DNA from: Podarcis cretensis
Taxonomy: Eukaryota
Reading direction: 5' to 3'
Assembly (NCBI GenBank): GCA_951804945.1
Contig: OX638154.1
Span: 45,818,001-45,882,000, forward strand
DNA length: 64,000 bases
Position 1 is the first letter of the stretch. Every line of letters starts with the position of its first letter. Of this stretch, positions 15,236 through 51,310 are shown in pieces. A program made the translations under genes and the position numbers. The notes beneath the pieces are model-generated. The model was not told the origin of the DNA and made no database searches. It saw only the letters and a program-made list of their open reading frames with translations.

Positions 15236-15371
15236 CTGTGTAGCTGATAGAAGGTGCTGAATTATCTGGTCCTTCATTTGGGTCTGAGGTTCCACCTACT
15301 GCCGTCAGTGCCTCTTCCTCTTCCTCCTCCTCTTCCCTGACCTCAGGTACTTCCTCCTTTGGCTGTTGCAT
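15236..15371 (-). CDS. PPARD: PPAR-delta first coding exon (acidic A/B domain); the exon extends 5' to about 15475 as UTR
   Basis: MQQPKEEVPEVREEEEEEEEALTAVGG...SYT, donor GT at 15235-15234, acceptor ttccttgaag at 15477-15476. The six coding exons sum to 1329 nt = 442 aa + stop. Confidence 0.93.
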
Positions 15372-16855
15372 AACTGATCACCACCCTTCAGTGCCCAGAC
15401 TGCAGTCCCTGTCATAGCTCTGGCATCATCCACGTCTGTCTGGAAAAGGGCCCCTATCAGGCTGTTCCTGCTAGCCTTCAAGGAAGAGAAGGAAAATGTT
15501 AAAGAGCATTTGACAGGGACACATTGTGCTATGGAGTCTTAGAAGGCCAATGGACCACTGTGTATATAGGGATTGGTAATCTGTGCTAGGACCACAAGCT
15601 CTGCACTTAATGCAAACTCAATGCAAATGTATTCCAATGGCAATGTGCCGATTTTCACAGGCTTGGGATGTGATGGCAAGGACAGCTGTCCTCAAACTCA
15701 AGGACAAAGGAGCATGGGCCACTCAAGGTTGTATAAGGAAAGGAATAGGAAGCTACGAAAAATACAAGTGCCTTCCCATCGGTCATGGGACAATCACTTT
15801 AACCTGTGAACTGTCAACAAGCACAGAACTCTGCAAAAAAAAATTCCCCTCCACATAAATACAAGGTGCTCACAATCTCCAGAGTGTGTTGAGCATTTTA
15901 CAGAATGTTTCCATATCCTGGTCACCTTCCCTCTTAAGACCAATTTACATTCTGCTGTGTACATATTCCATTTCCTGACCTTCCTTAGGAATGGATCGCA
16001 CGGACAAACAAGATACAATACAGGAAAGAACAACTATGGCCAGCAACTTTTCCCATAATCACAGTGGCACTATTTTCAGTCACTACAATCATGGGAACTG
16101 CTGACAATCACATCCTTGAGTATCCACCTCATACATTATGTTTGTCCATGTGAGGGTTTGCTCAGGAATAGACTACTTGTATGTACATAAACCACACTGC
16201 ATAATCTGCCCCTCAAAGAGATGTTACTATTTCTCTATATGCTGAGGGATTTGCTATTCAATGCAGTTGCTGAGGCTGCAATTTGAAGCACAATACCAGC
16301 GGGGGGCGGGGGGCCTTAACCCTTTCCTCTTAGTCTATTTTTCTGCCGAACGTCCTCCCCCTGAAGTTCTCCCCTCCCCAAGAGTCATCTTCAGATTGCT
16401 GCCCCAGCAAGCTGCATTATATGACAAACAATAAAAGAATATCAGAACTGCTCATAACACATAGTAACATCCTACATATTTATGTCTAATTCACTCAGAC
16501 GTCTCTTCATTTTTGTATTTGAGCAATATCTTCGATAGAATTTCTTTGGGTTTTAGCCTTAAAAACACACAGCCTTTCAATATGCTACAATGATGTAGCC
16601 ATCATCATCCTCTGCCCTTCACTAGCAGGTCCCAGGACAGGTTACAACAATTTAGATTTTTAAATTAAAACAGAGCACAATCACAGGAACAGAGTGGGCC
16701 CTGAAAACACCTATCTCAGGTGTTACAGGCTAGGGTAAAGAGGTACGTGTTCAGCATTTGCTGAAAGCTGTCAAGCCAGACGCACCTCTGTGGGGAGGAA
16801 ATTCCACAACTTAGGGAATGCTGCAGATAATCCATTGAAATTCATTCTATGCACA

Positions 16856-26500: not shown

Positions 26501-29271
26501 ACAATATCTGGCATCAGTACACATTTTATTTTTATAAGGTAGTTTGCCAATTGAATGTTTCTGTCCAGGGATCTGCACTAATCCAGCTGGATCCAATTTC
26601 CTCCTTTCCCCCCAATAAATTGCATATTTTTGTTACAACACTTGATCCAACCAACAGAACACCCTTTTCACATTATACGTTGCATTTATATAGCACGTAT
26701 CAAGCATTCAAAGCCTTTCATGTGCATCAGCTCAGGAGTCCTTAAAACTTCCCAGTATAGTAGGCTAGCACTATTCTCTCTTTATTGCAGAAGGAGAGAC
26801 AAAGAGAAAACAGAGGGTTCCCCTATTGCTCAGGTGAGAATTCAAACTGGAGACTTACTGCATTAGAATAGCCTTCTTAAGACATTCTACTTGTGTGCAG
26901 ATAACAACATGCAAGTGGGGATGAGAATGCTAAGTTTTGATTGCCCTGTCCATATTTCCCTCTACAAGGGTAATATTCTTAAAAAGCTGTGGGGTGGGGT
27001 TTTTTTTAATGCTGAAAAAATTGGAGTGCTAAATCATGTAGGAAGCTTCCATGAGTACAGGAGGCTTTCTGCTTCAGGTAGCAGCTCATGGAGGCAAGAA
27101 GGATGGCAATGGCAGGAGCTTAACACATTTGTCACTCCCTTGTTGCTTTTACAGCAAGAGTAGAACACCTGGAGGGGGATAGTAGCATGAGGCATTACTC
27201 CTCAAACTAAATGGAGTACTACTTCCACTATGTCATTCTTACAACAACGCCTTACATCTCTTTGTCTCACTTATGCATTTTACACGATTTCCCTTTTAAC
27301 CTATAAAGGGAATGTCTTTAAAAGCATCCCTTCATAAGGTATTTCTTATGACCAGCACCCACGGCAGATTGCGAGGTTAACAGTGGAGTCCTTGGAAACT
27401 CAGAAGAAGCAGCCCAAAGAGGAAGCCATAAAGGAAGGTGAATTAATGGAGAAGAGACACAATACAGTTAGGAAGGCCTGGTGAGCAGAACCTCGGTGCC
27501 CCAAAAGTTTGGGAATCGAATTTAGATTTTCAAAGACTACAGAGGAGCAAGCACCATTCTAGCAGGACATCATCTATTTCAGTTTGTACTCACTGCCATT
27601 AAAGTAAGGCCACATGTTAACAGTCCACTACCTGCTTTGTGTACACAAACATATGAGGCAGCAGCCAATTCCCAGAACTGAATTTACGAGGAAGGGTCAA
27701 CAGCTAATGAGTTTATACATTGGTTTATGCCTAGGATTTATTTTTATTTTTTTCGGAAAAATAGTAATTCCCATTTTTGTTTTTCCAAGTATATTATTTT
27801 CAGGTTTGTGTATGAGAGCAGCTGCCACTGTGCTCTTTTGGTACTGTCCCAGACCTTCTCAGGTGGCAAAGCATATCTCTTTGGCAGACAACCAATCATA
27901 CTGGCTGTAAAACAGGAGGCGCTGCTAAGTGCATGCTACTGCTAGAGATAGCCAGATTGTCTGGAACGTTTCCCAAGGACATTAGACCATGGAACAACAT
28001 CCCAAGGAATAGGCAAGTTATGGACAGGAGAAATAAATGAAGCCTACAGTGCTTGTATTATGGAATCTCATCTTAAGCTCCATGAATAAAGCTTCTCTGT
28101 ACTGTACTGTACTGCAACTGGTAGAAGAAAAAATTAATAAAGCTCTATGCTCATTTCATTTCAGAGTACAAAGCCCCTAGAGAAATAAAAACAAATGATC
28201 CTGGTTATTTCCCAGGTAAAGTACTACTGCTGGGTGTGTGGGATTGTGTGCACACGCAAGATAAATAGATTGCAATCGGATGCAGAGGATTTTATTTATT
28301 TAAAAATATTTCTAGACTACTTTCTATTTAAAAATACTGAAGTGGTTTACAATATTAAAACATTAAAAAAAAAAACATTTTTATATGCACACATATTAAA
28401 AATTCCAGGCTGTATGATCCAGTGTTAATGATCAGGAAATGCAGAACCAATAGGTGTGTTTTCAATAAATGCCAGCAGCATGGATGGCTCCCATTCAACA
28501 GTCTGAATCCAAGGATTCTGTAGTGCAGGGTGGTTAGGGTTAGGCTCTGCCCTTTTCCCCAGCTCTGTGCTTGTGTTATTCATGTATAGGTCATAGCTGT
28601 GTAGAGCAAGTGCCCCGATAAAGCATAGCCAGTGTTCGAAACTTCCATTGTTCTAGGCGCCTTTTGCAACAGGGAATTTCTTTAGCTCGAGCAGCTTCTG
28701 AGCTCTGGGTACAGTACTGAGCCTAAGATTTCAGATTAAAACTGCAGGAGGACCTTTTTCTGCCTCCCCACTTCCAGCTACTGTCTGAAGACTAGAGAAG
28801 AGACCCTCTTAAGGATATTAGGTGGGTGGGCAGGGGAAGGACTAGACTACATGAAAAATGAACATACAATTTTAGCTGCAGTTCATTCATTTTCAGCTTT
28901 GTATTCTTCTTATAAAAAAGCAGGCCTAGACATTCTGTTGTTGCGCCCATAACCTAGGATTAAGGTGCCATTTAGCTCATAGCTTTCATATCTCAGTTTC
29001 TAAAACTGAGCATAGCCCTTTCATTTATACAGGATCTCATGCACTGGGCTTTCCTTACTGACAACCACACACAACATACAGATGTGTTCCTGTCTTTTCA
29101 CAGCCATTCAACAGAATGTGACCGTTCTGGAGGTCAAGCATCCTGTCCTTAGCTGCTAGTCCATGTCAGCTTAGCAACTATAAACAGACAAGATGGAAGC
29201 TTAAAATCACAATTGTAGTATCTGGCAACGTCCTTCCATTAAAGGAGTGTTTGCTCTGGCAAGTATTCCCA

Positions 29272-31632
29272 TCACAACCTTCCTCTGGCAGCTTGTATCT
29301 GGTTCTCTAAATCATAAAGTCTTTGTGTTTGCCGCCTCATCCAGCCGACCAGCAGCAACAAACTGATCACTAGCGCCACTTGAAATAATAAAATCACCAC
29401 AATAGGGTGGAGAGCAATATTTAGTACTCCATTTGAACTTGGAGACCATCCAAGAAGCACCTCCCACCAAGCGTGGTCTCCAGCAGATTTAACTGTGGCT
29501 ACAATCTGGGCAATCTCCCTATTGCTATGCAGAATCTCAAGTGCAGCATTTTCACCCATGTCTTTGATTTTCAACAATTCCTGCTTCAGGGAGGGGTGAG
29601 AAAGCAGGTTTTTCAGAGTAGAAAGGCCAAGGCCTAGAGAAATAGGTGAGATTTCTCGATACAAAGAGGGGTAAGCCTTCATGTGCTGCACAGTCCAAAC
29701 AGGTACCCGAAATTGGAAATCACAGCCTACAAGCACACTAATATTGCAAAAACAACGGTTAATATAAGGCAGCATAGGCTGGATAACCAGACCATTAATG
29801 ATTACAAACTCACATGGCGTTCTTACACAAATACAGCCCTTCCCAGTATACACAACAGTAGAACTTTCTTCTTGGATTACATCAAAAGAGCAGCGGGAAC
29901 TATTTACAAGCTGAGGAGAGAAGCATTCGTGGTGTTCTTCTAAACTGCTGTCATCACATACAAAGCCCAAGTTTTCCTTTTTCGCACAACCTTGCACATT
30001 AACTGTTTGCCAGTCACCATTCCTCATCCGTGCCCACCTATTGGAGTCCCTGGAATACATGACCAAATCCTTGTCAATCTGGAATCCCAAGGGGACCACT
30101 GGATAGATTGGGATGATCTGGGTGGCTTCTACGGTTATTAAAAATAACCGCAGCATATTCTGGGCAGAATCATAAGATGCATTTAGCAACCTCCACCAAG
30201 CCTCCAAGGCTATTTCTCCTGAAGTGAGCTCTGGCCGAATTAAATTGCTCACCTCCATGGGAATGTTTCCCGCCTTGGCCTCTCGAATCATTCCCATGAC
30301 TACATTCTGTGTGATTGCTTGTGCCTGTTCACATGCTAAAGCCAATGAAACATTGCTTTGGAGGGACTGGATTCCAGACACAATCAACAGGCTGTCCTCT
30401 TCTAATATTGCTTCCCAGACTGGAAGCACTTTACTGATAGCTTGTGGTTGTTCTGTGAGCTGCAAGAGAGATTTGGTTAATGGGGCAGTCAGTTTCCCTA
30501 TTTGTTTTGTGGAATATGAAAGTTTATTAGCCAAGACTTCTATGTTGGCTGCATCTATGAAAGAAAGACCTGCTCCTAGGGGCCCAAGCCAATCCATCAG
30601 TTCTCTTTTAACCCTTTCCCCATGATGTACTCCATCCCACATTTTAACCCACTCCATCCAACCTCTGTGGCTGACTCCGAGAAAGGGAGCACATTGAGGT
30701 GCTCTCTGTGACACATTCAAACCCTCAAAATGAATCTGCACCTCCTTTAGTGAGGTCTGGGGGTGCATGACAATTTGTTCAGGCTGATCTAATTTCAACA
30801 CATGAGACCCAATGATGGGGTTGGTCAAATGGCGAAGTGGGAGGATGTCTGTGATCAGGGGATTAAATGTAAAAATTGTTTTGTTTTGAGAGCCAAATTC
30901 TACCCGGTATGAACCTTGCTCACTTATTTCCTCTGTGATGGCAACAAAACCATAGACTTTAAACCTAATAGAGGACATTTGTTGGTCACAGTGTGTCCCC
31001 CTGATCGGCACCACCCAGTCTGGTGGCCCCTGTTTAATTAAGTCCATTCCATTTAATTCCCACTCCTGAGATTCCCAATTAACGATCAGGCGGGTGATGT
31101 TCTTTCCGGAGGGCGAAATCAAGGACAGTTGGAACTGATCTCCAGGAAACCTAGTGTTCTGGGTTCCAACAACAGTTCGCAGATGCAGCGGTGCACCAGG
31201 TTTCCATAAAGCAGCAGAAACGAGGGCAACATCACATGAACCATCCTGGATGCTGCTGCTTCCAGCTGAACGAGAATCCAGGTGTGTAGGCAAAGGTCGG
31301 CAAGAAACAGGAATGCGAACACTTGAACTGGCCGTCTGCATGCTGTAACAAAAATGTCCAACTTCTCCACTGGTCTTGAGGGTGCAATTGGCTATGTCTC
31401 TCCAGTGGCAGCTGACTGAGTCTGAGACGGCATGGAACATGTAGAAGCTCTGGAACACTCCAGGGTTGGATCCATTGGCGTACAATCCATGCATGCGACA
31501 AAGCAACCTTGCTTCAGCTACTCCTCCTTTTGGCAGACAGGCCCACAACTTCACAGGGATGGCAGACACATTCGGGCTGGCAGAAACAACCATCCATCCG
31601 TTCCCCAGGAACAGCAGTAAAGGCAACAACAT
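29272..31632 (-). CDS. Intact endogenous retroviral envelope-like glycoprotein, 786 aa, candidate domesticated env
   Basis: Stop-free ORF (track shows 821 aa; probable start is M36, aggATG, just after a splice acceptor). Signal peptide MLLPLLLFLGNGWMVVSA; 10 N-X-S/T sequons; furin site RVKR (30615-30604, aa 340-343); fusion-peptide-like ELMDWLGPLGAGLSFIDAA; heptad-like helix; 11 Cys in the TM ectodomain; membrane-proximal WWEVLLGWSP; anchor HPIVVILLFQVALVISLLLLVGW; short tail. Confidence 0.9.
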   Translation of the reverse strand: MLLPLLLFLGNGWMVVSASPNVSAIPVKLWACLPKGGVAEARLLCRMHGLYANGSNPGVFQSFYMFHAVSDSVSCHWRDIANCTLKTSGEVGHFCYSMQTASSSVRIPVSCRPLPTHLDSRSAGSSSIQDGSCDVALVSAALWKPGAPLHLRTVVGTQNTRFPGDQFQLSLISPSGKNITRLIVNWESQEWELNGMDLIKQGPPDWVVPIRGTHCDQQMSSIRFKVYGFVAITEEISEQGSYRVEFGSQNKTIFTFNPLITDILPLRHLTNPIIGSHVLKLDQPEQIVMHPQTSLKEVQIHFEGLNVSQRAPQCAPFLGVSHRGWMEWVKMWDGVHHGERVKRELMDWLGPLGAGLSFIDAANIEVLANKLSYSTKQIGKLTAPLTKSLLQLTEQPQAISKVLPVWEAILEEDSLLIVSGIQSLQSNVSLALACEQAQAITQNVVMGMIREAKAGNIPMEVSNLIRPELTSGEIALEAWWRLLNASYDSAQNMLRLFLITVEATQIIPIYPVVPLGFQIDKDLVMYSRDSNRWARMRNGDWQTVNVQGCAKKENLGFVCDDSSLEEHHECFSPQLVNSSRCSFDVIQEESSTVVYTGKGCICVRTPCEFVIINGLVIQPMLPYINRCFCNISVLVGCDFQFRVPVWTVQHMKAYPSLYREISPISLGLGLSTLKNLLSHPSLKQELLKIKDMGENAALEILHSNREIAQIVATVKSAGDHAWWEVLLGWSPSSNGVLNIALHPIVVILLFQVALVISLLLLVGWMRRQTQRLYDLENQIQAARGRL

Positions 31633-31644
31633 CCTGGAAAACAC

Positions 31645-31670
31645 CTGAGAGAAAGAGAACAGAAAAAGGA
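31645..31670 (-). promoter_or_regulatory. Strong 3' splice acceptor feeding the env ORF
   Basis: Minus strand reads tcctttttctgttctctttctctcAG|gtgttttccaggATG, with the ATG 12 nt into the exon. Confidence 0.75.
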
Positions 31671-32324
31671 TCTCCGAAACCCCAGTTGCCTGGGTATGCA
31701 TCACTACTGCAACTCCAGTTCTTTGATGAGGCATCACTGACAGGTGCAGTATCCATGAGAAAGAAAGGACTGCTGGTCCAAGTTAGCAATCAGAATGGCT
31801 ACTAAGTGATGGACTGGATTCAGATTGAGACCAAGAATCCTGGGGGTATATATTTCTGCTCAGAAAACAGGTTATAACAAGGGACTAGTGGCCCACCTGG
31901 AATACATGCCAGTGGCACAAGCCAGCTAGCATATTTTACTTATTTTACTAGCTTTCTTCCAGAATAATCTTTTCCAGATTTAGTATCCAGAAATCAGGGG
32001 ATTTCTAGTGACCCAAGATTAAGAGATGCTTGGCATCCCTGAAAAGAGAAGAGAAAGAAACCTTTTTATTTAGTTGTCTACACACTTGGCATTCAACATG
32101 GAAATTTTTGGCCGTAATGCTCAACAGACAGTCAAAGAATAGCAAATCAATTTCTACTTTAATTATGAAATTTAAAAACTTTCCACTTCTCCCAGCACTG
32201 GAAACTTCCACTCTGCATATTCTAGGGCAGTTCAACAATTATCAGTGTTTAAATGCTTGTTTTTCTTTTCTTTTTTACTGAGATGGCAGGACAATCCAGA
32301 AGGTATTCTGGGCATGGGGATAGA

Positions 32325-35060
32325 GATTTATTCTATTTATTTAACAAAATTTAAATACTGCTTGCCTGTAAGAAAACCTCTAAGTGGTTTAAAGGGATCC
32401 CTGACCGTTAGGTCCAGTCATGGACGACTCTGGGGTTGCGGCGCTCATCTCGCTTTACTGGCCTCTAAGTGGTTAACGTAAGTATAAAATAAAGCATTAA
32501 ACCTCAGTATAAGAACAGTTAAAATGGGTATTTAAAAACATGTAGAAGACTATCATAATCAACACTAGTAAAAAAGAGAGAAGTGCTTATGTAGCTTCTA
32601 CATGTCTGAATAGGACTGCCAAAACAAAAATGTTTTAAGCAGATGGTGAAAATTACAGCGAAGGTACCTGCCTGATGTCAAGCAGGCAGGGAGTTTCAAA
32701 GTATAGGTGCTGCTACACAGGAAGAACAATTTCTTCTAAGTATTGAACAAGTATTATGTGGCACCAGTAACGCTGCCAGTTCTGCAGATCAAAGCAGTTG
32801 AGGGAGCATATATGGAGTAAAGTGATCTTGCAAGTAAAATGGCCCCAAGCTGTTAAGGGCTTTATATCCTAATAGTACGTAATTCCTCGAACTTGGCCTG
32901 GTAGCAAATGGGCAACTGGTGCAGAACTCAGAGCAAGGGTGTTATATGCAGACAGGGTTTCATTCCTGTCAGTAACTGTGCAGTACAGTAACTAATTGCA
33001 GCTTCTGGTTCAAGTGCATGGGAAGCCCCACAAAGACTGCATTGCAGTAATCCCATCTTGAAGTCACCAATGCTTGAACTACTGTGGCCAAGCTATCCTG
33101 GTTCAGGATTGGCTGTTGGTGTCACCCTAGTTGCAAAGTAAAGGGCACTTCTAGCAAATGAGGCTACCTGGACCTCCACTGGCAGAACAGGTTCCAGAAG
33201 CACCCCCAAACTGTGTACCTGCTCCTTCAGAGAGAGCGCATCCAGGGAAAGCAGTTGACAAATTTCTTGGACGAAAGAATCGCTCACCCACAGTATTTCT
33301 GTCATGCCAGGATTCAAGCTTAACATATTTTCCTTCACCCATCCTACCACTGGATCCAGGCACCAGTCCATGGCCCACACCACCTGCCCTGATGCAGGTG
33401 TGATGGAGAAATAGAGTGAAGTGTCATTAGGATCCTGATAACTCATTGCCCACAAACTCCTAATGATCGCTTCAAGCAGGTTCATGTAAATATTAAATAT
33501 CACTGAGGAAAGAATAGTGTCATCCTGCTTCATGTAAGTGCAAAGGGCCACAAAGCACTCTCCCAAAAAGCATTGTCCTGTAAGTAGGACACAAACCATT
33601 GGAATACAGTGCCCTCCAATTAACATTTGACAGTCTTAGTCCAGTAGGATACCATTGTCCATGATACTGAAAGTCGCAAACAGAGCGAAAAGTGAAAGCC
33701 AAGTTGCACTCCCCTTGTCCCGCTCTTCGTAAAGGTTATCCATCAGGGCAACCAAGAGAGACTCAATCCCATGACCAGGCCTGAACCCAGATTGAAACAG
33801 ACCTAAATAATCCATGACATCCAATAATGCTTGCAGCTGCCCTACCAGAATTCTCTTCACTACCTTCCCCAATAAAGGTAGTTGCAACTGGTTGGTATTC
33901 TAGTCCAAGGGGTTCAGGCCTGGCTTCCTCAGGAGAGGTTGCACCACAGCCTCTTTCAAGGGAGTAGACGCCATCCCCTTACGGACTTCAGTGCCAACCA
34001 CACTGGCCCCAAACAGTCAAACCCCCCCTGCTAGCTTTAATAAGCCAGGAGGGACAGGGATCAAGAGGATACATGGTCAGGCATATAGCCAGCACCTTGA
34101 CTACATCAGCAGACTGCATCAGCTGAAACTGATCTCACAACACATCACTGACTATGGCACTGGGTATTTCATCTAGAACTGCAATAACCGCAGAATTAAG
34201 GTCACTCTGAAGTCAAGTGACTTTATCCTCAAAATATATAGCCAGTTGGTCACAGTAGGTCCTCTAATGCTCCAGAGGTCCTTCCCCCTCTGTGGAAGTC
34301 AGTAACCTCCAGAATGTTTGAAATAATTCCACTGGCCAGTGACTAGAGAATGCAATGCAAGCTGTGAATGCGCCTTCTTTGCAACTTGCATGCGCTGCCA
34401 CACGGTTGGCACAGTTACTGCACTAACCAGCGTTCAGTCAGCTTCAGAGTGAGACTTGTGTCACTTGCACTCTAGTCTTCATTCTGCTTGCTTCATAGCC
34501 CGAAGCTCTCTAGAATACCAAGGAGCTGCCCTGGCTCCATAACGCCATAGAGGATGCTCAGGAGCGATCATGTCAACCACTCATTTCATCTTGCTACTCC
34601 ATAGTGAAACCAGGGCATCAACAGGATTGTCCAGACTGTTTAGGAATTCCTCAAGAATTCAGGAACTCCTTAAGTTCCATTAGTCTCTGAGAGTGGGCCA
34701 TCCAAACAGGCCTACTTTACTACTAATTACTACTAATGTTCCAACCATGACAAGGGACTGAATTGCATCCCCCCCCCCCCAAAAAAAAGTTTGACCTCTC
34801 CCTCATATCACTTGGGCTAAAGACAACATCAAAAGTGTGCCCTGCCTGATGTGTTGGACCAACGACCATTTAAAAAAGTCCCAGGGCAGTTGATGGACCA
34901 CCTACCGTACATTCCCAGTTAGCCACTCAACTCCAGCTATACTTTCCCCCACCCATCAACACTGAAACTGGGGGAACATATTCACAACTCCTTCCTACCT
35001 GCCCATCCAGACACATCCTGGCACCATCATCCAATGTCACACTATACAGCTGGGCAATTA
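32325..35060 (-). mobile_element. Decayed L2-clade LINE (APE endonuclease and RT remnants); ends approximate
   Basis: RT fragments LPLLGKVVKR...FQSGFRPGHGIESLLV...IMDNGILLD and SLNPGMTEILWV...VHSLGVLL, endonuclease motif GPTHQAGHTFD near 34860-34830, many stops and frameshifts, A-rich tail near 32325. Confidence 0.85.
32390..32461 (-). mobile_element. 5'-truncated Sauria SINE nested in the L2 3' end
   Basis: Matches the 3' end of the 9740 SINE; perfect 13-bp TSD cctctaagtggtt at 32377-32389 and 32462-32474. Confidence 0.8.
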
Positions 35061-35067
35061 GGGCCAC

Positions 35068-35151
35068 AGATAATAAACAAAGGTGGGCACATCCCACACT
35101 TTCAGATGGAGATAATAAACAAAAGTGGGCACATCCCACACTTTCAGATGG
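35068..35151. repeat. 42-bp tandem duplication
   Basis: agataataaacaaa(g/a)gtgggcacatcccacactttcagatgg x2 with one mismatch. Confidence 0.9.
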
Positions 35152-35276
35152 AAGGTAGTAACTTCATAACAACTCTCCTTATGCTGTCTCTCACTCAGAG
35201 GGAACCCACAAAACCAAGTTTCTCCTCTTCCTGGCTTTCACAGGCCTGCTTTCCACATTCTCATTTTCAGTGTCCT

Positions 35277-35645
35277 AGAATCATAGAATTGTAGAGTTCG
35301 AAGGAACCCTTAGTGTCATCTAGTCCAACCCCTTGCAATGCAGGAATCATAGCTGAGAAACCCTTAACATATCCTTGACAATCCAACCTCTGAGGTAGTC
35401 AATTCCGCTATCGAATAGCTCTTACCACCAGAAAGTTCTTTCTCATGTTTAGACAGAATCTCCCTTCCTGTAATTTGAATCCACTGCTTTGGGTCCTACC
35501 CCCTGAAGCAGCAGAAAACAAGTTTGTTCCATCTTCCATACAACAGCCCTTCAGATATTTGAAGATGGCTATCGTATCACCTCTCAATCTTCACTTTTCC
35601 AGGCTAAACATACCCAACTCCCTCAACCATTCCTCACAAGGCTTT
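35277..35645 (-). mobile_element. CR1 LINE 3' fragment
   Basis: agaatcatagaattgtagagtt...ctagtccaaccc CR1 tail in reverse, followed by RT C-terminal remnant. Shorter tails lie near 48975 and 61455. Confidence 0.75.
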
Positions 35646-37501
35646 GGGGGTACCCTGCCACAGTTGATCCTACTGCACACATCAGATTCTGCACCTACAC
35701 TACAGCTATATCCACTCAACAAGCAGTAAAGCAGAACCACTAACTGCAATCAGCACAAACACTTTCTAACCTGAAGGCAGAGATCTAACAGCACAAAAAC
35801 TGTGTAGACATCCTGTAGATACGATATTATTATGGTATCAACATGATTGTTCCACACTCCTGTCAAAATCTCTTGTGGGGTTTCCAAGCACTTGCTGCTG
35901 CTGAAGGAAGCCACAGAGAAGCCTGCATTTTAAAATGCAGCCAGTGGTCCAGGGCTGCTGCAGCCTGTTCCAACTGTCTCTCTGCAGCTCACTTCCCTTC
36001 ATCATACTATAATTCACAGTGCCACCTATCTATGCCCAATCAAACTTCAGGGTGATGGCATTCTTGCATATTTATGATATGTAAGCTATATTAAATTGTA
36101 TTTATTATTTTCTCAATAAAACTGTTTTTTGAATAAAAACCTGTAAATGGCCCTATAGACAGCAGGAAATTCTGATTTATTTCTGCCTTAAATGCTTGTT
36201 TCCTTACCTTCTTAGTTGCCCTTCTCCAATCTGTTATCCTCCAAAAGCTTCAGACTATAACTTCTTTCATTCTTGACTGTTGGTCATGCTGACGGGGGCT
36301 GATGGGAGTGAATTCAAAACACTGGAGGGCACACCAGGCTGAGGAAAGCTGTTCAATGCCATTAAACCCAGACTTACAGCAGAAATCTAACCATGTCTAC
36401 TCAGAAATAAGTCCAATTGACTTCAATGAAGCTTACACTCAGGTAATTTGGGTTAAGACTGTAGCCTTACTTTCTTTCGCAAGTGGCCAATGCTTTGGAT
36501 TCTGAACAAAAGCCTATGCTGAACTTTCATATAAGTTAATTTTATTTTTCAAGAACTTCCAGCCAGAAGCTAGTGGGTTCCTCTCCCTCTCTGTTTTCCT
36601 AGGCACAGAGAGAAACTGCCACTCACACCAACAATTCAGCTTTGTACTGGTAGCATTGCAGTCTAGGCTGCACTCATCCAAGACAGCTGGAAAAGTGTTT
36701 AGCAACCCTTCTGCCCCCTCTACAGATGCCTCGAGATTGCTGACTGAACAGTGAGAAATCTGGAACTATTAACTTTACAGAGTTGCATTTTCTCACCTCA
36801 TTTGCCAGTCACATCAACACTTTCCTGTCTGGCACCCAAATACATTTTCAGTGTGCAAAACTAAAACACCTGCGGGTGAACAGATGGCCCTGCAACACTA
36901 AGACTATCAGACACTATGCCCATGAGGGAGTAAGAGTCATATCATTGTACACCAACAAACGATGGCACCAAGGCCAACAAGGCAGTGCTAAGTCATAACA
37001 AAATCTACCACACCATCCATTCTGCCAAGGACAAAGTCTCCTGAAGAGATCAGAATCAGAGGCTTCAGAGCAAATTCCAAGGGCATCATGGCAGGTTCCC
37101 TCATCCCTGGAAAAGGTTCCAGTTTAACAACAACATGGGTAAAAAAATAAGATGAAAACACTTATTAAAATTCCTGCCTCTTAAAATCTTAAATCTAACC
37201 ACTGGAAGTCAACCCCCAAAAGGGTGATTTCCCAATGCTTCTCAAAAGTGCTGAAGCTTGATCAATCTCAAAATAACAGAATTTCCAAATTAATGTTGCA
37301 GCCACCAAGCACACCTTGCTTCCAAACAATCAAGAGGGCCTCCTTGGCTGATCTAAGATGTATCTTTATATTTTAAGATTACAGAAAATGTGAGGAGTCG
37401 TATATGTCTACTTATTTCAGAGTGAAGAAAGGAGAGAATCTCAAAAAGGTTAACTTCAGGCAGAGGTGCCTCCAACAATAATTTGTCAGACTTTAAGAAT
37501 A

Positions 37502-37727
37502 CAGTGGTACCTCAGGTTAAGAACTTAATTTGTTCTGGAGGTCTGTTCTTAACCTGAAACTGTTCTTAACCTGAAGCACCACTTTAGCTAATGGGGCCTC
37601 CTACTGCCACTGTGCCGCCAGAGCACGATTTCTGTTCTCATCCTGAAGCAAAGTTCTTAACCCAAGGTACTATTTCTGGGTTAGCGGAGTCTGCAACCTG
37701 AAGCTTATGTAACCTGAGGTATCACTG
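37502..37727. mobile_element. Tc1/mariner-type MITE, family A (reverse orientation to the 55313 copy)
   Basis: TA|CAGTGGTACCTCAGGTTA...TAACCTGAGGTATCACTG|TA. Confidence 0.85.
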
Positions 37728-40700
37728 TAGTGGCCATTTTTTCACAAGCATGAATTTAGAACTAATCCAGAATAACAAAACAAGTGAGGATTAGAATCTG
37801 GACCACACTTTACAGAGCAGTTGCTAGAAACCCCATCAGTAAAGAGGAAAAACAAGACAATGTCATAGGAACGTATTTTTTTTCACAAGGAAGTTCAAAG
37901 CTCTGTGTAGAAACTTCTCTATGAGTCATTCATGAAGAAGGAACAAAGGCTTTCTATAGAAATCTAGAGATTTTTCCTGTGGAAATTTTAGCATGCTTAC
38001 ATCTAAGTGAAATTTTTGAGGGTGAATACTTTAAATATATCTATATATATATAAAATAAAGAAATGCATATTCAAGCCAACAATTCAAAAATTGCTCTTC
38101 TGGTAATAAGGGGCTTGGGGAGTTCCTTTTCCTTCATGAAACAAAGTGGGTTTGATGAAAAAACCCCTCAAGTCTGGAGCATTGAATTGCAGTATTACAA
38201 AAGACAGGTCCAAACCTTCTCCAATCAGAGCGGACTATAAATCTTGTCTCTTCAGAAGTAAGATTACTTTAGATAACACTGTGAGGATTAAAAACTGAGC
38301 AAACAACAGGAGACAATTCTGTTAATGATTTTCACAGGGATTAGTAAGGCATAATAGCTCTCCCACATTTCTCAGGGCAGCGTATTTTTTCTCCCCTCCA
38401 CCTCCCAAAAAAGGACATCAATCACTGTTACTGGTTTTTGAGTCCAAAACAAGAAAAATGTTGGAATTGATGGATTGTCAAAAGGTATTAAGAAAGAGTT
38501 GCCAAGAAAAGCGACTTCACCTGTCATAAAAGTGAGCACAGAACGAAGTGGCAGCAAAAATGGCAGGATCTCACTAGCCTGTACTTGTCTTCAGAAATCT
38601 CAGATTTTTCAACTATATATATATATGGGTAACACATTTACACATCAAATAAAAAATGATGTAATACTATGCTGGGAGGATGGGGCAGTAGAGAAGACAA
38701 CAAAAGGCTTTGCTCCTACTAATGTTCAACATCAGTTTTAGTATGACATTTATCACCACTTGGGACTCTCATTTGCTCACCAACCCTGCCAAACCCCACA
38801 CTGTCTTGACAACTCCCATCACCCCAACACCCTTACAGCTCCTTCACCCCAACACCCCCACATACCCATCACAACCCACCCGGTTTCCAATCTCTATCTC
38901 ACAGTTTGTCCAAAACTCGTGCCTCCTCCAACATTTCACCCTAGTCTCAAGATCCGCTGTCACCGTCAATCACAGAGAAGAGGGGCATGAAGAGAAGAGA
39001 GCTTTCCCCTCTTTCAGCACGCACCACTTTCACTGGCAGAAGAAAGCGTGCATTTATAAATGGACACTTCTTTCTGGTGGCAGTGAACTAAGGAGAGAAT
39101 GTTTTCAACCTGTAGCAGCAGTGGCGACAATGACGGGGAGCACCCCTTCAGCTTGTCTCCCCTCATTGTCCACGCATGAAACCAAGCTAGGAGGCAGCGG
39201 GTGGCTGCAACAACAACAGGAGGGACATGGGAATGCCCACCTGGGCCACCCACCTACCCACTTGCTTGTTCTGCTGGCCTGTTTACTCATGCTACTGACC
39301 TGCCTGCTTTGGTCACTCACTCTGCCCGCTGTTGTTGTGTTGCAATTTATGTGGTTGCCAACTGGCAGTCACACAAATTGCAGTGTGAAAAACTTTCTCA
39401 TATATAGGAAGATATAAAATGCCCCTACTCGGAAGCATCTGTTAAAAATAGGTTTGGTTACTCCTGAAAGCTAGTATCTTATTTCCTATTTTAAAACAAC
39501 GCAAAAGGCCCGTGAGAAAGTTTTCCTGCCAGGGTGTAACCCTATCTGTACATCTGAAGAGCAGCATCTCTTCCCAGTCAGCTCTCTTGCCAGCATCAAG
39601 GCCACATATGGAAAACAGACTGAAGCTTTTTTGTCAATAAATACAAATAAGACCATGGTCATAAACTCAACTCAGAAATGTAATGAATGTGGGAACAGAC
39701 TGCGATATAGTTATACTAAGAGTGAAGACAGCAAGAAGACCCGTGGGGTTCCTTTCAACTCTATAAGTCTAAGATTAATTGGTTGTGGTTTATATCCTTC
39801 TATTTCCCCAAGAAATGCAGATCAGAATACCAGATGTTTTGGTGGTGGTGTTTTAAGTAAGAAATTATTTATAAGGGCCTTGAGAAGTCATTTCAAGAGC
39901 AGCAAAGGCTTTTCCAGAGAGGGCAGTTCTGAACTTTGACAAATGGATGCTTTTCTCTTTGGTAGACTTTTAGCATGCCTCAGTTATATGGTCTTTGCCC
40001 AGCCAAATTCACCACAGATGCTGACCATTTGATTGGGCAGCTGTTCCTGCACTCTGCATGCTTCTTGAAGACTGTACACCACCAGGGCAGTGTTTCTGAA
40101 ATGAAAATGTTGATCCTCTCAGAGGATGGGAAAGGACTGCGAAACTCCAAAGAAAAGGGCTTTATCTTGCAGATTGTTTTGTTTCAGATACAAACAAAAT
40201 TCCAGCTGTGAAAAGAAAGGATAGGACTTTCTCTAGTATGTGGCAACTAAAGAGGAACTGAATGGGTGAGTCTTACTCCAATGCCTTAATAGAGTTGATG
40301 GGTGGGTACTAAAAATTTTAGTCAACAGAAGGGATGAACATGTCACAGTCGTCTTTGAAAGATGGACCATGTACATGCACAGATTATATATGGGTTGGCA
40401 CAGAGAGACACTTAAAAGAATAGCAGCTGCAAGTAACTGCATCACTATTGTAAATTTATATCCCATGTCCTTCTCCAAGGAATGGTGGCTTAAAAATAAA
40501 TAAATAGTGAAATCAGAGTAGATCTATTAAATTAATGGACCCAATTCAGTCATGTTTCAGTGGATCTACTCTGAGGAAAACTCAGTTGAATAACACCCAT
40601 TGCTTAAAAAAATAAAATGTAGTGTAAACCTCCAAAGCCTCAAAGATAATCAGTTTTCAATTGTGCCCAGCATCTGTATACTACTGAATATTTTGAGGAC

Positions 40701-42357
40701 TTTGCTGTATGCACTATACAGCAGTTTTCACAACAATGGCAATATCTCTAAGTATCATAATTGATGTTTCATCAGCATTTGCACCTTAATAGCTCTACTT
40801 GACTTGTGAAATGGCTCTGTGGGAACAAAAAATTTCCTGCTGAGTCTGTTTGGAATGTTACGCTGCTTTTCAATTTTAGATTTTAATGCTCAGTCTCTAA
40901 AAGAAGAAAGACAGTACATTGCCAACACCTAAAATCCTACAACATCTTCCACATTAAAATGACCATATTATGAGTCACTGCTGGCAGAGTTCAGCTATTT
41001 AGAAAGAGAAATGCCAGTGCTTTACTTTAATAGCATATTATTACCAGGTGCTCAAATATAATCTGCTTCAGGAAGAAACTGTTATACTAATGTTGCATGC
41101 TCACCAAAAAGTTCAGAAAATCACACTGCAGGCTTTCATTTCATTCGGGCGAGATGGAACACAGCTGATCTGTGTCTCTGGACAAAGGCAGAGCCTATTG
41201 AAAGCAGACTCAGCAGAAACCCGATGCTGATATACTGAGCTTAATTAACACAGTTGCTGTGAAAGATTCAGGGCAGTGGCATGTTGAACTACCTTCCATG
41301 CGAATTTTCATAACAAAACTCTCACCACTTATTCATGATCCTGCAGCTCAAACAAACAGAACTGAGAATAGATCAGAGGCCACTCACACGTCTCCAGCCT
41401 AGATCTCTGTAAGCCCTAACACAGCGTCTCCTTTTCCAAATGCTAAGAAAACATAAATTAAGGTCTTACTGACTCCAAGCAATACATTGTCCCTACATTA
41501 CAGAACCCTAAACATCCTCTTGCCTGCACACTGGCCGCAGTATATTAAAACCATGAAAAACAGCAACTCACCCACCAGGAGAATTCAGCCGAATGCCTGC
41601 AGCATCTGAAATGAGCATGTGACTTTTGTGTACTTCTCTATCGCTCCGCCTCTGCCACCTGCTCAGAGTGTTTATGGAATTGCTGGCCAAGAAAATAGCA
41701 CAGCTACTGCTTCATGACTGCACTCAAATTCCTTGCCCTTTCTCAGTACAGTTTTAGAAGAGGGTTGTACATGAAGCACTTGCTTAAGCCAGGGGAAGCA
41801 GGGAGTCCCCAGAAAATTCACTGGTGGTGTTACAAGCCAGTAATTCAGACCCATGTCATGATCAGGGTGCAGGAGGCTTCTTTTGAATTGAGGCAGTGGT
41901 CACCCACAATGACCCAGAGCATATAAGCCAGTTTTGCTCCCCACCCCCACCCCAACATACACACTTTTTCATTCATGTTTACAAAGTTCCTGAAAAGAGC
42001 TTTTGAAATAAAAATCAGAAAAGTAAAACAGGCAGAAGCTGTTCTTTTGCCATGGAAATGACACAGTCACTACACCACTCCCTGCTATTATGCCAAATGT
42101 AGGTAATACAGAGAAGATAAGCAGGCAGGTTTCAGAGTGAGCTCTCCCTCTTTGAACAGGGGGTTAGAACTCCATGACTACCAACTAGAAATGAGAAGGG
42201 AATGTAGTTTTCTGAACCAGACCAATGACCACAAACACAAGCCAGAATTACCATCCATCCCATACCTACTCTTCACTGAAAAGCCTCCTGATGTTTATTG
42301 TCAAAGATACCTTAATTACCGTACAAGGCTATGAGTATCTAATGCTTTCAAGATCTT

Positions 42358-42422
<65 letters not shown>
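42358..42422. repeat. (CA)n(GA)n compound microsatellite
   Basis: Read directly from the sequence. Confidence 0.92.
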
Positions 42423-42426
<4 letters not shown>

Positions 42427-43174
42427 TTAATGTCACCTCATTAGAGAATCAAAAATCTTTAACCAATTGACTAATCTAGGGCAGAGGTAGTCAAAGTGTA
42501 GGACTCCAAATGCTCGGACTACAACTTGTATCAGCCCCAAGCATTGGACATACTGGCTGAATCTGATGGGAACTGTAGTGCAAAACATCTGTAAGGCCAC
42601 TGGTTAGCCACCCTAATCAAGATGGGGTTTTTTATTTTTAAAAAAGACAACAGGGCAAATTACCACTAAAATCTCTCTAATTTCACAATATCATTAAATA
42701 ATCTTGTATCAAACATACTGCCAGCAAGTCATTTTAACCACTCTCTCTAAGTCTCTCTTTCCATGCCAAAAAAATAATAATTCTACCCTCAGCAGGAATG
42801 AGAAGAGCTATACCATTGTAACTCATGATATATCTAGAACACATACACTACTGTAACTCATATTTTACACATACACACATACACACACATTTCCCAATCT
42901 TGCCTTTTCTCATGGAGATGGATAAAGCAGGTGTTAACCTGCATGCCATTCCTAAAGTTCTTCAAAATCACCTTGACTCATCAGACTGAGGCAGACAAAG
43001 GATTCAAGACATAGCTGAACTGGCACACACTGACTACCCTGCACCCAGCTTTTGCAGAAGCTAGTGGATCCAAATGTGCTGTTCTAGCCAACTCCTTTTT
43101 CCTGGCCAAACCTGGTAAGTCTGCCCAGCAATAATTATATGGATCTTCCTAACCATATTCCTTCACCTACAATG

Positions 43175-43410
43175 GTTTATTTTATTGACTGACTGCTTTT
43201 ATATCCCACCTTTGTCTCCAAGGAGTTCAAGGCGGCATACATGGCTCCCCCAACCACCCTCGTCATTTTATCCTCACAACAAGCTTGGGAAGTAGGTTAG
43301 GCTAAGATACAGTGAGTGGCCCATGATCACACACTGAGCTTCATGACTGAGTGGGGATTTGAACCCTGGTCTCCTAGGTCCTAGTCCAACACTCTAAGTA
43401 CCACCACACC
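43175..43410 (-). mobile_element. Old tRNA-derived (MIR/Squam-like) SINE
   Basis: ttatcctcacaac...gtaggttaggct...ggggatttgaaccctggtctcc. Other tRNA-headed SINE fragments lie near 2560-2700, 26025-26075, 46980-47170 and 51390-51440. Confidence 0.6.
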
Positions 43411-46143
43411 CCATACACAATTTAAACATGAACACACAGAGCATCTGCCAGGTTGCAGGGTTAGTTTCTGGGTGTGAAGGGTGCAGATGGCTTCCCATTT
43501 GCTGCTCCATGGAAGCACATGATGTGTAGAAGAAATGCTGTCACACACAGGGAAGCCGTCCTCTCGCAGGGAGCACTTGCATTTGGCCTTGGGCTCTAAG
43601 TGCACTGAGTGGTCTCTACATCTTGCCACCTGCATGCACAAACAATAGGCAACACAGTGCCCTCTGTCGTCTAAATTGTGTCTACTCTTGTTACTGAGTG
43701 AACTATACTACACGTGCATTTTTAAAAGAAACCTGCATTACAAGAGCCATTCACAATTAATCCTGTCTATTTGTCGCAACACAAGTATATTTTCAAAACT
43801 GGTAATTCGCCTTAAAAGTAAAAGAGTTCAATTTCTATTAAAGCATTTTGTTACTCTCCCAAACACAAAGCAATCAGAGCACACTAAATATCACTGCTTA
43901 TCAACCAGTTAAGAAATTCATTCTTCTCCCCTCCTGTTGCCCACTGGTCAGGTAAATAGGAATATTTGGATTTTACTCTTCATCCCCAGCAAAAAGGCAA
44001 CAGCAGGGTCACTGTTCCTACTCTGGAAGTGCTTGCAGTGGTATGGCAGGGATTTTGTATCCCCATTTCAGGCTTTTGTTTTTACAGAGGGTGTGAACCA
44101 TGCACAAAACTTGTTCTATCATGAGGATCACTTCTTGAAGGACTCTGCCTTGTGATTACAGTGTAACAAAGGGCACTCTAAAAGTTTGGCATTTTCTTTA
44201 CAAAAGCAATAACATAAACAATCGTTTCACAATCAGTATCAAGCTACATATTCATATTTAAAAGGAAGGCGTCTGTTTATTTATTTGCTACCTGCCCTTT
44301 ACTATAAAGTCCCTGGGTAGGTTACAACCATAAAAATATACAATTATAAAACAAGTAAAACAGTTATAAACATAAAGCAAGATAAGTAAAAACACTTCCA
44401 TTTAGAAAAAGTTAAAAACAATTCCACAAATTAAAAACAGTTTCAATATAATTCAAATACAGATGCATTCATTTTATAGCAACTATAGAAGTGAAATCTA
44501 TTGTACCCTGCCCCTAGAATGTTAGGATGAAAGGCAGGTTGAATACCCTTAATAAATAATAATTCTTCCTTCTTCTAAGAAAATATGACAAGTCCAATGA
44601 AGATGCAATGGTGATATGATTAAGACAATATTAAATTATAGAAATAAATCTTCTGCAATAAACAGTTTTGTTACCATCAGAAAGTTAAAGATTAAAGTAA
44701 ATGTAAGAGTGAGTTCAAGATTCCATTTTGGATATACATTATATTATTTTTGCTGTTATCTGGATTATGTTCTTGTATTTTATTGTTGGACCTTATTATG
44801 AATTATCAATGGACTAATTTTAATGCATATTTGCTAACATGATTTTTTTCATTAGCCTATTGTTTATATGACTATTTAAATTTTGGTATGTATTGTAATT
44901 GTTAGTGAATTATCTTACATAAACTTTTTGATGTGAGCCATTTTGAGGATGGTTCAGCATGGAAAAGTGGCATACAAATAAATAATGGTGCCGATAATAA
45001 ACAGAAAGCTACTTGGGATTTCTTTTAGGTTTCAGATGCTCCACTTCATTCCAGCTAATCTCCATATACCACAAAACAATGACAATGGTCCATGCTAGTT
45101 CTTTCAGCACACCACTGGGTCAGCATAGGCGAGAAAAGATCACATTGCACAAAATTCCAGGAAACATAGTAGCTCCTCCATTTACTCAAACATTAATTTA
45201 CAACCTTTAGCTTTACTGAACTGGCAGTGTGGGAATGCCTTAAAAATGAACAGATGAGTTTGCAGAAGAGCACAAACAAAACCACTATAATTTTCTGTCC
45301 TCATTTCTGAAAGGCTACACAGAGGGTGGAGTTGTGCACTATATCAAACCTGGTAAAGCCAGGGAAATACATGCCGTAACTTACACCTGGTACTAAGAAA
45401 CAACAGCCTTGTCTTAACCAAGGTAACTAGGCTTGTGAATCAGTCAGCTAAGCCTTGCAAAGATAGGCAGTGACAGTACTTACAAACTATATGTGAATCC
45501 TTTTCATGTAGCAGAAATGCACAGAAAGGTATTCAACTAGGTTTCAATGAAAGTAGACCCATTAAAATTAGCTGACTTTATACAGTCATGTTCATTAATT
45601 TCAATGGGTCTACTCTGAGTGAAACTTAGTTAATTACCACCCATATCATTTAATGAACAGGATTTGGAACAATTTCAGGGACTAACAGTATTTTACAAAA
45701 ACACAGGAAAGCATCAGTATCTAACATGCACTCATTTAAACACTAATAATTCTTCTTTTTCACAGAGGGAGTGCTGTAAGACACAGAGAATAAACTACCA
45801 AACATGAGTGGTGAGAATTTAGCAGCATGCTACCCACAACTCCAACTCACACTCTAACTCCATAATACTGTAAAGCACAGATTAAAACAGAAGGTTTTAA
45901 AACAGAAGGTTTTACATTCTCTCGTTTATTACTGTATTTCACAGATAACACTGAGACATAGCGTGTTCATTTATATTTGTCAGCTGTTCAAACAATAAGA
46001 AGTACTATTATCACATGCAGAATATGAAACCAACAAAATCTGAAAACAACCCCCACATCCACTGCTGGGACTTTCCAGAGTATAATCCAATATATAATCA
46101 AATATACCTAGAACCCCAAACTGAGATTTTAAGAGCAGGTTAC

Positions 46144-46234
46144 CTCTTTTGACCAAATTTCTCCGTTCACCTGTTGGTGAAAGCCAACCTGTCGTTACCA
46201 TGTCAGCATGAAGGAAGTCCCAAGTGGAAAGAAA
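46144..46234 (-). other. PPARD: PPARD non-coding exon 2 (5' UTR)
   Basis: Acceptor gttttgctctcttgcag and donor AG|gtaacc flank 91 nt containing ggctttcaccaacaggtgaa, which resembles the mammalian PPARD 5' UTR exon 2 as I recall it. Confidence 0.7.
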
Positions 46235-48083: not shown

Positions 48084-48411
48084 CAGTGGTGTCTCGCAAG
48101 ACGAAAAGAATCCGTTCCGCGAGTCTCTTCATCTAGCGGCTTTTTCGTCTTGCGAAGCAAGCCCATTGACGGCTTGGCGGATTAGCGCTATTAGCGGCTT
48201 TTAGCGGCTCATCGGTTTAGCGGATAAGCAGATAAGCGGCTTAGAAAAAGGGGGGGGGAGGAAAAAGAACCCGCAGGAACTCACAAGACATTTTCGTCTT
48301 GCGAAGCAAGCCCATAGGAAATTCGTTATGCGAAGCACTTCCAAAACGGAAAACTCTTTCGTCTAGCGAGTTTTCCGTCTTGCGAGGCATTCGTCTTGCG
48401 GGGCACCACTG
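48084..48411. mobile_element. Tc1/mariner-type MITE, family B (opposite orientation to the 10921 copy)
   Basis: TA|CAGTGGTGTCTCGCAAGACGAA...TTCGTCTTGCGGGGCACCACTG|TA. Confidence 0.87.
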
Positions 48412-50599: not shown

Positions 50600-51310
50600 G
50601 GGGGGGGGGTGCTGGTGTCACCGGGCAAGGCACGCAGCCAGGCAACGGGGCCAAGCTCAGCTGCAGCCGACCTGGAGCAGCCGCCACTGGGCACCCCGGA
50701 GGCGGACAGGCCTCGGCAGATGCCCCAGGGCACCAACAACCCCCCCCCCCCCCCGCCAAGCCCCCGTCTCGCGAGGCGCCACACAGAACTACCCCCGTCC
50801 CAGAAACGCCGCCCGCTTCCCCCGCCACCTCACCTGCCGGCCACGAAGGGCGCGCGCTCCCCGGCCGCCCTCGGCGCAGAACTTTTGTCATGAGAAACCC
50901 CAACCCGGCCCGACAACCACAGCAATCTCTCTCGTCTTTTTTTTTGTCCCCGCCCACCCTCTCGCTCGCGTCACTCGCGCTGGGCCTGGCGTCACCGCGC
51001 ATCGCCACCCCCGTTGGCCAGTCAGAGGCGCGAGGGAGGTATTAGCATATCGCCACGACGACGGACCAAGCCCGTTCCCGCCCCCCTGAGGAGAGAAGGT
51101 TCTCTCTCGTCAGCAAAGGAGGCCGACCCTGTGGTTGCTACCTCCTGCCCCGGTGGTCGTCGAGTGGTAGCGGGTTCTTCCGTGGAAGCGGCCGTCCCAG
51201 GGCGGAAAGTCCCTCCAGCGGGAGCGAGAAATGGACGCCCGTCTCCGACATCGGACAGACGGATGCAAACAGGGCCAGGGACTTTCTGCATCTGGTCGCG
51301 GTGCAGAAGG
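50600..51310. promoter_or_regulatory. CpG island / PPARD promoter
   Basis: Only long non-repeat GC- and CpG-dense stretch in the window; GC-box-like (ccgcc) and CRE-like (TGACG) motifs; lies between the DEF6 3' end and the PPARD exons. Confidence 0.85.
50834..51000 (-). other. PPARD: PPARD non-coding exon 1 (start approximate)
   Basis: Lies in the CpG island; strong donor CAG|gtgagg at 50833-50832; two TGACG half-sites near 50969-50995. Confidence 0.65.

Follow-up and report, generated by a model that had tools for sequence, protein, structure and literature searches.

A retroviral envelope gene (env) lies intact in a 5' intron of PPARD in the lizard Podarcis cretensis, and we regard its domestication as almost certain. 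The DNA analysed (the window: 64,000 nucleotides (nt), positions 45,818,001 to 45,882,000 of contig OX638154.1, assembly GCA_951804945.1) contains the captured env open reading frame (ORF) at 29272..31632 on the minus strand, as a single coding exon whose translation is 786 amino acids (aa) plus a stop. Given the stop frequency of the window, about 3e-15 equally long open frames would be expected by chance, and the stop-free frame of 2361 nt described in the first-pass annotation is thus borne out. The protein has 10 sequons, 20 cysteines, a furin-type site RVKR at residues 340-343 and a strong hydrophobic C-terminal anchor. As for the fusion-glycoprotein hallmarks claimed earlier, the sequons, RVKR, anchor and Gly-rich peptide stood, but the peptide is only moderately hydrophobic and the signal peptide was assigned by inspection. 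The host role that we favour from the sequence, with a probability of about 0.5, is that of a fusogen acting in cell-cell fusion or a related membrane event.

Orthologues, selection and age

The homologue search gave 8 clusters, 5 of which list 26 named squamate species: lacertids, the amphisbaenian Rhineura, Elgaria, Varanus, agamids, Sceloporus, Anolis and 13 snakes (the listing gave 15 of 21 snake-cluster members). Full-length orthologues were found in 24 named species (lacertid, amphisbaenian, anguimorph, iguanian and snake); the two Crotalus rows listed were shorter (551 and 518 aa). The protein is named "PPAR delta isoform" in 20 of the 26 species, and the other six are models without a name. 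These "PPARD isoform" sequences align end to end with the env ORF, and the nuclear-receptor part is absent from them. Moreover, the env models of Elgaria and Varanus end in LEGTA, and the first coding exon of PPARD in the window gives LAGTA followed by a stop; therefore, env appears to be spliced into the PPARD coding exon in these species, at the same locus. Orthology of the locus was thus assigned from annotation (names and LEGTA tails), not from genome synteny.

In the alignment of 25 rows (the window protein and the 24 full-length orthologues), identity to the window protein was 79-99%, 20/20 cysteines and the R-X-K-R motif were kept in 25/25 rows, and the anchor was kept in all 25. The squamate tree has a length of 1.09 aa changes per site (22 rows); in the absence of selection one would expect about 53 nonsense changes, as estimated from the ratio of possible nonsense to missense changes in the ORF, and 0 were seen (P about 1e-23). 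This estimate is biased and the case is overstated, because only annotated, intact rows were counted, but the bias is too small to matter. In addition, all four of the read differences listed inside the ORF were synonymous. Judged indirectly, from these sequences, env is under purifying selection.

A quick full-length tree (45 rows, with support from the Shimodaira-Hasegawa-like approximate likelihood ratio test only) grouped the 22 squamate rows at 99 and recovered Rhineura with lacertids, iguanians, anguimorphs and snakes; lacertids, acrodonts and pleurodonts were also recovered as groups in the env trees. In a bootstrap tree of residues 273-760 (30 rows, 15 of the 45 being left out), the squamate clade had support of 99.9/94 and most subgroups were supported, and the grouping of Rhineura with lacertids was not resolved (37.5/66). 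Molecular dates for the host groups lie near 170-180 million years (My). The sections cited of one fossil analysis (PMC9064307) date snakes, anguimorphs and iguanians to the Jurassic, and the capture would be older than about 145 My because the carrier groups were already Jurassic there.

Copy number and remains of the provirus

Searching the genome gave 8 matches to env, of which one, this ORF, was intact; the other 7 were partial, with 25-41% identity and mostly with stops (L002-L008, in G000 C3, C6, C10 and C12, L005 and L006 being one place), and are decayed relics of related envelopes in the Podarcis genome. Near-identical sister copies were not found. No pair of direct repeats, as expected of long terminal repeats (LTRs), flanks the env ORF, and tblastn with an Ovex1-type RNaseH/integrase model gave no match at E <0.1 outside it. 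Pfam recognised no family in any of 18 flank frames translated, the plus strand at 36.1-45.1 kb lying outside the scan. These repeat, tblastn and Pfam scans agree with the earlier statement that gag, pol and LTRs are missing nearby; just one purine run of at least 10 occurs within 1.5 kb downstream of env. The Pfam flank scan was insensitive, and very decayed proviral DNA is possible, because it overlooked even a remnant resembling a long interspersed nuclear element (LINE) at 33-34 kb. This decayed LINE-like reverse-transcriptase remnant, at 33093-34100 on the minus strand, was seen by eye and has no Pfam match.

The first-pass reading, a lizard env captured long ago, solitary and under selection, therefore holds, with orthologues across Episquamata, one intact copy and a spliced contig. 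None of the findings that the first-pass annotation named as refuting this reading was made among the annotated orthologues, genome matches and reads covered. The low depth in two raw RNA runs would fit the relic of a young or neutral provirus whose frame happens to be open, but such a relic would hardly have orthologues at 79-99% across lizards and snakes, no nonsense change where about 53 are expected, and neither LTRs nor sister copies to be found. The orthologue set already refutes it, unless the gene models are wrong, and we give it practically no weight.

Envelope class and predicted fold

The first-pass annotation placed env beside the syncytins. This kinship with syncytin-type Env is not supported, since gamma-type motifs are absent, the predicted fold is F-like and the described relative is Ovex1 ORF3. 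Indeed, the protein contains no CXXC and no CX6CC, and no adjacent cysteines among its 20; Pfam, including its fusion-protein families, gave no match for it, and PDB sequence searches, single and profile, gave no meaningful match. The closest described relative is a chicken protein (E 4e-105, 35% identity over 511 aa); its 873 aa agree in length with Ovex1 ORF3, although the database entry carries no such name. A pigeon model fuses the env family to an integrase-containing ORF. Previous work, in the sections cited, clusters crocodilian endogenous retroviruses (ERVs) with Ovex1 (PMC4299795) and doubted that ORF3 of Ovex1 is an envelope (PMC2717909). Judging from sequence relationships, the squamate env is derived from a retroviral envelope gene of the Ovex1-related lineage.

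Foldseek searches of the PDB with the AlphaFold model returned paramyxovirus or pneumovirus F proteins in all 39 rows displayed (best E 1.5e-9, henipavirus F). The top VIA-align match was F of Newcastle disease virus (NDV), with Z 7.4, a root-mean-square deviation (rmsd) of 13.1 and 363 aligned residues within 273-716. Residues 130-261 matched many unrelated Ig-like domains in VIA-align (Z 6-7, rmsd 2-3.5 over 80-90 residues). Among viral models, the walleye epsilonretrovirus Env ranks second and third, and the best ESM Atlas scores (0.85-0.88, below 0.9, hence leads only) point toward F-type families. The cleavage site, fusion peptide, two heptad regions and anchor stand in F-type order, with a fusion peptide weaker than typical. 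Several values count against this assignment: the AlphaFold model is middling, with a predicted local distance difference test (pLDDT) of 60.7, falling below 50 in residues 1-130 and 335-399, and a predicted template modelling score of 0.37; the Foldseek TMq is about 0.2; and a VIA-align Z below 8 is weak on its own. Taken together, these predictions indicate that env is an F-type (class Ib) envelope, with an F-like core to which the parts before and after the cleavage site both contribute.

Apart from this, the top viral-model match was a 928-aa entry, A0A384ZVF2 (E 5e-18), aligned across most of env. A single-sequence fold of residues 271-716 was discarded (pLDDT 36).

Transcripts and the PPARD locus

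PPARD lies on the same strand (minus) as env; its coding exons extend from 15475 to about 4950, a CpG island is found near 50.5-51.5 kb of the window, and the env ORF is located in the last intron ahead of the PPARD coding exons. The "PPARD intron 2" of the first-pass annotation is accordingly right as to a PPARD 5' intron; the intron is number 2 without the exon at 36.2 kb and number 3 with it. Reads from 4 of 24 runs were placed on 31101-51100, and our findings are limited to the joints and differences listed. The canonical joint 46234-50834, which marks two PPARD 5' exons, was seen in 4/4 runs. In one of the four (X1), a 731-nt contig links the env exon, which begins at 31644, 12 nt ahead of the ATG, with an exon at 36208-36348 through a GT-AG intron. 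Many squamate RefSeq XP models agree with a spliced env transcript.

Against expression of such a transcript it must be said that the splice evidence is one contig in one run whose RNA status was guessed, that a 3,235-nt contig in X5 passes the acceptor unspliced, and that depth in the env bin was <0.4 in both raw-read runs; no run containing the ORF is recorded as RNA in the sequencing-run search. The transcript evidence for env is real but thin. PPARD exon 1 with its CpG island is probably the promoter of the env transcript; because no joint from the 36.2-kb exon to the 46.2-kb exon is among those listed (4 runs, 31101-51100), we infer this sharing of the promoter.

An in-frame upstream ATG at 31734 would give a protein of 820 aa (34 residues more). 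This start was rejected, and 31632 is the likely one, because the extension runs across a strong splice acceptor and the Zootoca protein uses another reading frame there.

The env models of Elgaria, Crotalus, Vipera and Varanus (P0020, P0030, P0038, P0050) leave the exon near residue 532-540 and lose the anchor; that of Elgaria splices into the PPARD first coding exon, and a matching AG/GT is present in the window. Such an anchor-less splice form could be a secreted protein, or could act as an upstream ORF regulating PPARD. Env is listed as PPARD isoform X1/X2 in many squamate annotations, and pipelines that keep the longest isoform therefore mistake env for PPARD.

The features of the locus are collected in Table 1.

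Table 1. Features of the env exon and the PPARD locus, in window coordinates.
Feature	Position	Strand	Basis
Probable signal peptide, residues 1-18	31579..31632	-	Hydrophobic N-terminus, by inspection
Ig/filamin-like beta-sandwich, residues 130-261, candidate receptor-binding module (putative function)	30850..31245	-	VIA-align
F-protein-like core, residues 273-716: F2-like part, heptad helices, Cys-rich beta domains	29485..30816	-	Foldseek, VIA-align, Ovex1 ORF3 identity
Furin-type cleavage site RVKR, residues 340-343	30604..30615	-	Motif; R-X-K-R in 25/25 squamate rows
Putative fusion peptide, residues 344-365, Gly-rich, moderately hydrophobic	30538..30603	-	Sequence
Transmembrane anchor, about residues 744-765, then 21-aa tail	29338..29403	-	Hydropathy
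First AATAAA 3' of the stop, candidate poly(A) signal	28295..28300	-	Sequence motif
Candidate internal splice donor AG/GT at codon 532	30036..30038	-	Matches break point of the Elgaria 555-aa model
Polypyrimidine tract and AG acceptor	31644..31670	-	Sequence; used in contig X1 record 1
Non-coding exon 5' of env, joined to the env exon across a GT-AG intron (36207-31645)	36208..36348	-	One contig, one run
PPARD non-coding exon 2	46144..46234	-	Acceptor 46234 from reads; low end guessed from GT motif
PPARD exon 1 and CpG-island promoter (upper bound approximate)	50834..51250	-	Reads, sequence
PPARD first coding exon, ATG at 15371	15236..15475	-	5' end reads LAGTA-stop in one frame

Elsewhere in a PPARD intron, at 11105-11493, lies an array whose units, of about 60 nt, contain inverted repeats; the element that includes it has a related copy at 48.1-48.4 kb and is probably a transposon.

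Proposed origin and host role

We propose that a retrovirus of the Ovex1 lineage with an F-type envelope would have integrated in the PPARD 5' intron of a squamate ancestor, no later than the time when lacertoids parted from iguanians, anguimorphs and snakes, and that the remainder of the provirus would then have decayed. The env exon, with an acceptor just before its ATG, may have turned into an alternative last exon, supplied by upstream non-coding exons of the PPARD locus. Purifying selection has since maintained env as a host gene in single copy, which we regard as almost certain. An alternative last exon that borrows the 5' exons of a host gene would be a route of domestication. The protein would be a type I membrane glycoprotein, presumably cleaved by furin, whose N-terminal part with the Ig-like module may engage a partner, after which the freed fusion peptide and the heptad helices would refold and merge membranes. 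Such a fusion would serve a host event common to egg-laying and live-bearing squamates.

The fusion apparatus appears to be the most constrained part of the protein, because invariant columns make up 63-70% of residues 366-752 (heptad, core and membrane-proximal regions) versus 42-44% of residues 21-261, and the pattern of conservation at the sequence level leans towards fusion. Other observations pull the opposite way: the putative fusion peptide is only 50% invariant and carries 4 charged residues amid its glycines, conservation of the core is also expected of a non-fusogenic trimer that needs to fold, and a conserved bat env, CHIRalphaEnv, gave no fusion in the results cited (PMC13568524). 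These points would suit a domesticated surface or shed glycoprotein, a receptor, ligand or adhesion molecule that uses the F scaffold as a stable fold without fusing membranes. A charged, weakly hydrophobic fusion peptide fits that role, as do the shorter isoforms without an anchor that databases model for Elgaria, Crotalus and Vipera and the failure of other conserved envs, such as CHIRalphaEnv, in fusion tests. However, the charged start of the peptide is common to outgroup relatives such as the turtle copy and is therefore not decay, and the furin site is kept in 25/25 rows, so that we think a non-fusogenic role rather unlikely.

The lower conservation of the N-terminal domains than of the core would also be expected of an antiviral factor that blocks related viruses by occupying their receptor or by poisoning envelope trimers. 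Related envs persist in birds, turtles and frogs, and kin viruses have therefore circulated for long. Nevertheless, the Podarcis genome holds only decayed relatives (25-41%), and neither loss nor rapid change is seen among the 25 rows. Receptor blockers, moreover, tend to occur in restricted lineages and can usually do without an intact anchor or fusion machinery. An antiviral function thus appears distinctly improbable to us.

A tie to viviparity and the trophoblast was suggested in the first-pass annotation, and a placental syncytin co-expressed with PPARD in extra-embryonic tissue could draw on the probable sharing of the PPARD promoter and on the several carriers that are live-bearing. The gene is equally intact in the egg-laying genera Podarcis, Anolis, Pogona, Varanus and Python, so that a placenta-specific role is unlikely, and viviparity arose in squamates only recently, after the capture. 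The suggestion is not supported by this comparison and we now hold it to be very doubtful indeed. A role in the extra-embryonic membranes of eggs may still fall under the host fusogen that we prefer. Env is a candidate fusogen in animals that mostly lack a placenta, and env function before or without placentation could be tested in Anolis or Podarcis.

Relatives beyond Episquamata

Beyond Episquamata, P0007 and P0042 are a pair of full-length relatives at 60% identity to env, with 20/20 cysteines and R-X-T-R at the cleavage position. Two other relatives are truncated. The Pelodiscus model P0008 (658 aa) has neither signal peptide nor anchor, and the Alligator model P0043 has 409 aa; the two are 81% identical to each other, and each is 56-60% identical to the env protein. 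Squamates, the P0007/P0042 pair and turtle plus alligator form one clade (97.3/88), within which the order of the three was not resolved in the bootstrap tree (6.4/38). No gecko, skink, tuatara or further turtle match was named in the homologue searches, which scored limited candidates and do not show absence.

The turtle, alligator and P0007/P0042 proteins may be orthologues from a much older insertion, or may stem from separate insertions of a kindred virus. Lepidosaurs split from turtles and archosaurs about 280 My ago. That the insertion predates this split, that Pelodiscus, Alligator and P0007/P0042 are orthologous, and that the squamate gene is an active F-type host fusogen, all taken together, is an improbable conjunction in our judgement; if true, this would be the oldest intact captured retroviral env among the literature examined.

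More distant relatives were also seen. P0009 is a full-length relative of 806 aa with about 40% identity, on a contig of 8,143 nt, and Rhineura has a second, diverged relative (P0045, 308 aa, 49%) on a contig other than that of its PPARD-locus copy. Multi-copy relatives occur in two frogs, a crane and an owl (P0102, P0133, P0046, P0048), and the evidence suggests that the env family stayed active in other tetrapods.

Comparison with known captured envelopes

The chicken Ovex1 ORF3 is, in the sections cited, likewise a conserved single-locus ERV env, with a spliced exon that begins 11 nt before the ATG (12 in squamates) and without CWLC, immunosuppressive domain (ISD) or CX6CC (PMC2717909). Unlike the squamate gene, Ovex1 is avian, retains gag and pol, and has no signal peptide according to its authors (PMC2717909). 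The N-terminal half of Ovex1 ORF3 gives no significant alignment to the squamate protein, and Ovex1 falls in a separate clade with long branches, which argues for a separate capture and not for an orthologue.

The percomORF of spiny-rayed fishes has an age of a little over 100 My, and the squamate env (Jurassic) is probably older. Both are very old, single-copy, solitary envs in a host intron, that of DNAJC6 for percomORF, and under purifying selection; percomORF was reported, in the sections cited, to be fusogenic and brain-expressed (PMC12813294). They differ in host group and locus, and were likened by description, not by sequence.

Among squamates, the gecko ERV-Spuma-Ppi/Gja env is also solitary and co-opted in egg-laying species, with an age above 96 My and a function given as unknown in the sections cited; it is a foamy-virus env near UBR4/EMC1 and reported only in geckos (PMC6669660). 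Syncytin-Mab1 and env-Mab3/4 of Mabuya and the mammalian syncytins share with our gene a captured env with cleavage site, fusion peptide and anchor. However, Mab1 is gamma-type and Mab3/4 are alpha-like in the sections cited (PMC6669660, PMC13568524, bioRxiv 2024.03.17.585361), whereas the squamate env has neither CXXC nor CX6CC. The reptile captures treated in the cited sections of PMC12129022, PMC8922424, PMC6669660, PMC12813294 and bioRxiv 2024.03.17.585361 (syncytin-Mab1, env-Mab3/4 and the gecko foamy env) are different genes. Our literature search gave no description of an env in squamate PPARD; there is about a 1/3 chance that the locus is already listed, for example by Wang and Han 2020, who reported 177 vertebrate co-option events (as cited in PMC8922424, in part).

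Among retroviruses, foamy viruses and lokiretroviruses have F-like envelopes, according to the sections cited (PMC11468914, PMC7947760, PMC13524379). With the F-type fusogens (paramyxovirus and pneumovirus F, foamy Env and lokiretrovirus Env) the squamate env shares its predicted core fold and the order of elements (PMC11468914, PMC7947760, in part). The squamate protein differs from them in about 270 extra N-terminal residues with the Ig-like module, in 8-14% identity and in being a fixed host gene. In it, a host has preserved a member of a retroviral envelope lineage about which little is known. The well-studied captured envs are mostly gamma-type and younger, whereas the squamate env is, on the predicted fold, F-type and appears to be Jurassic or earlier.

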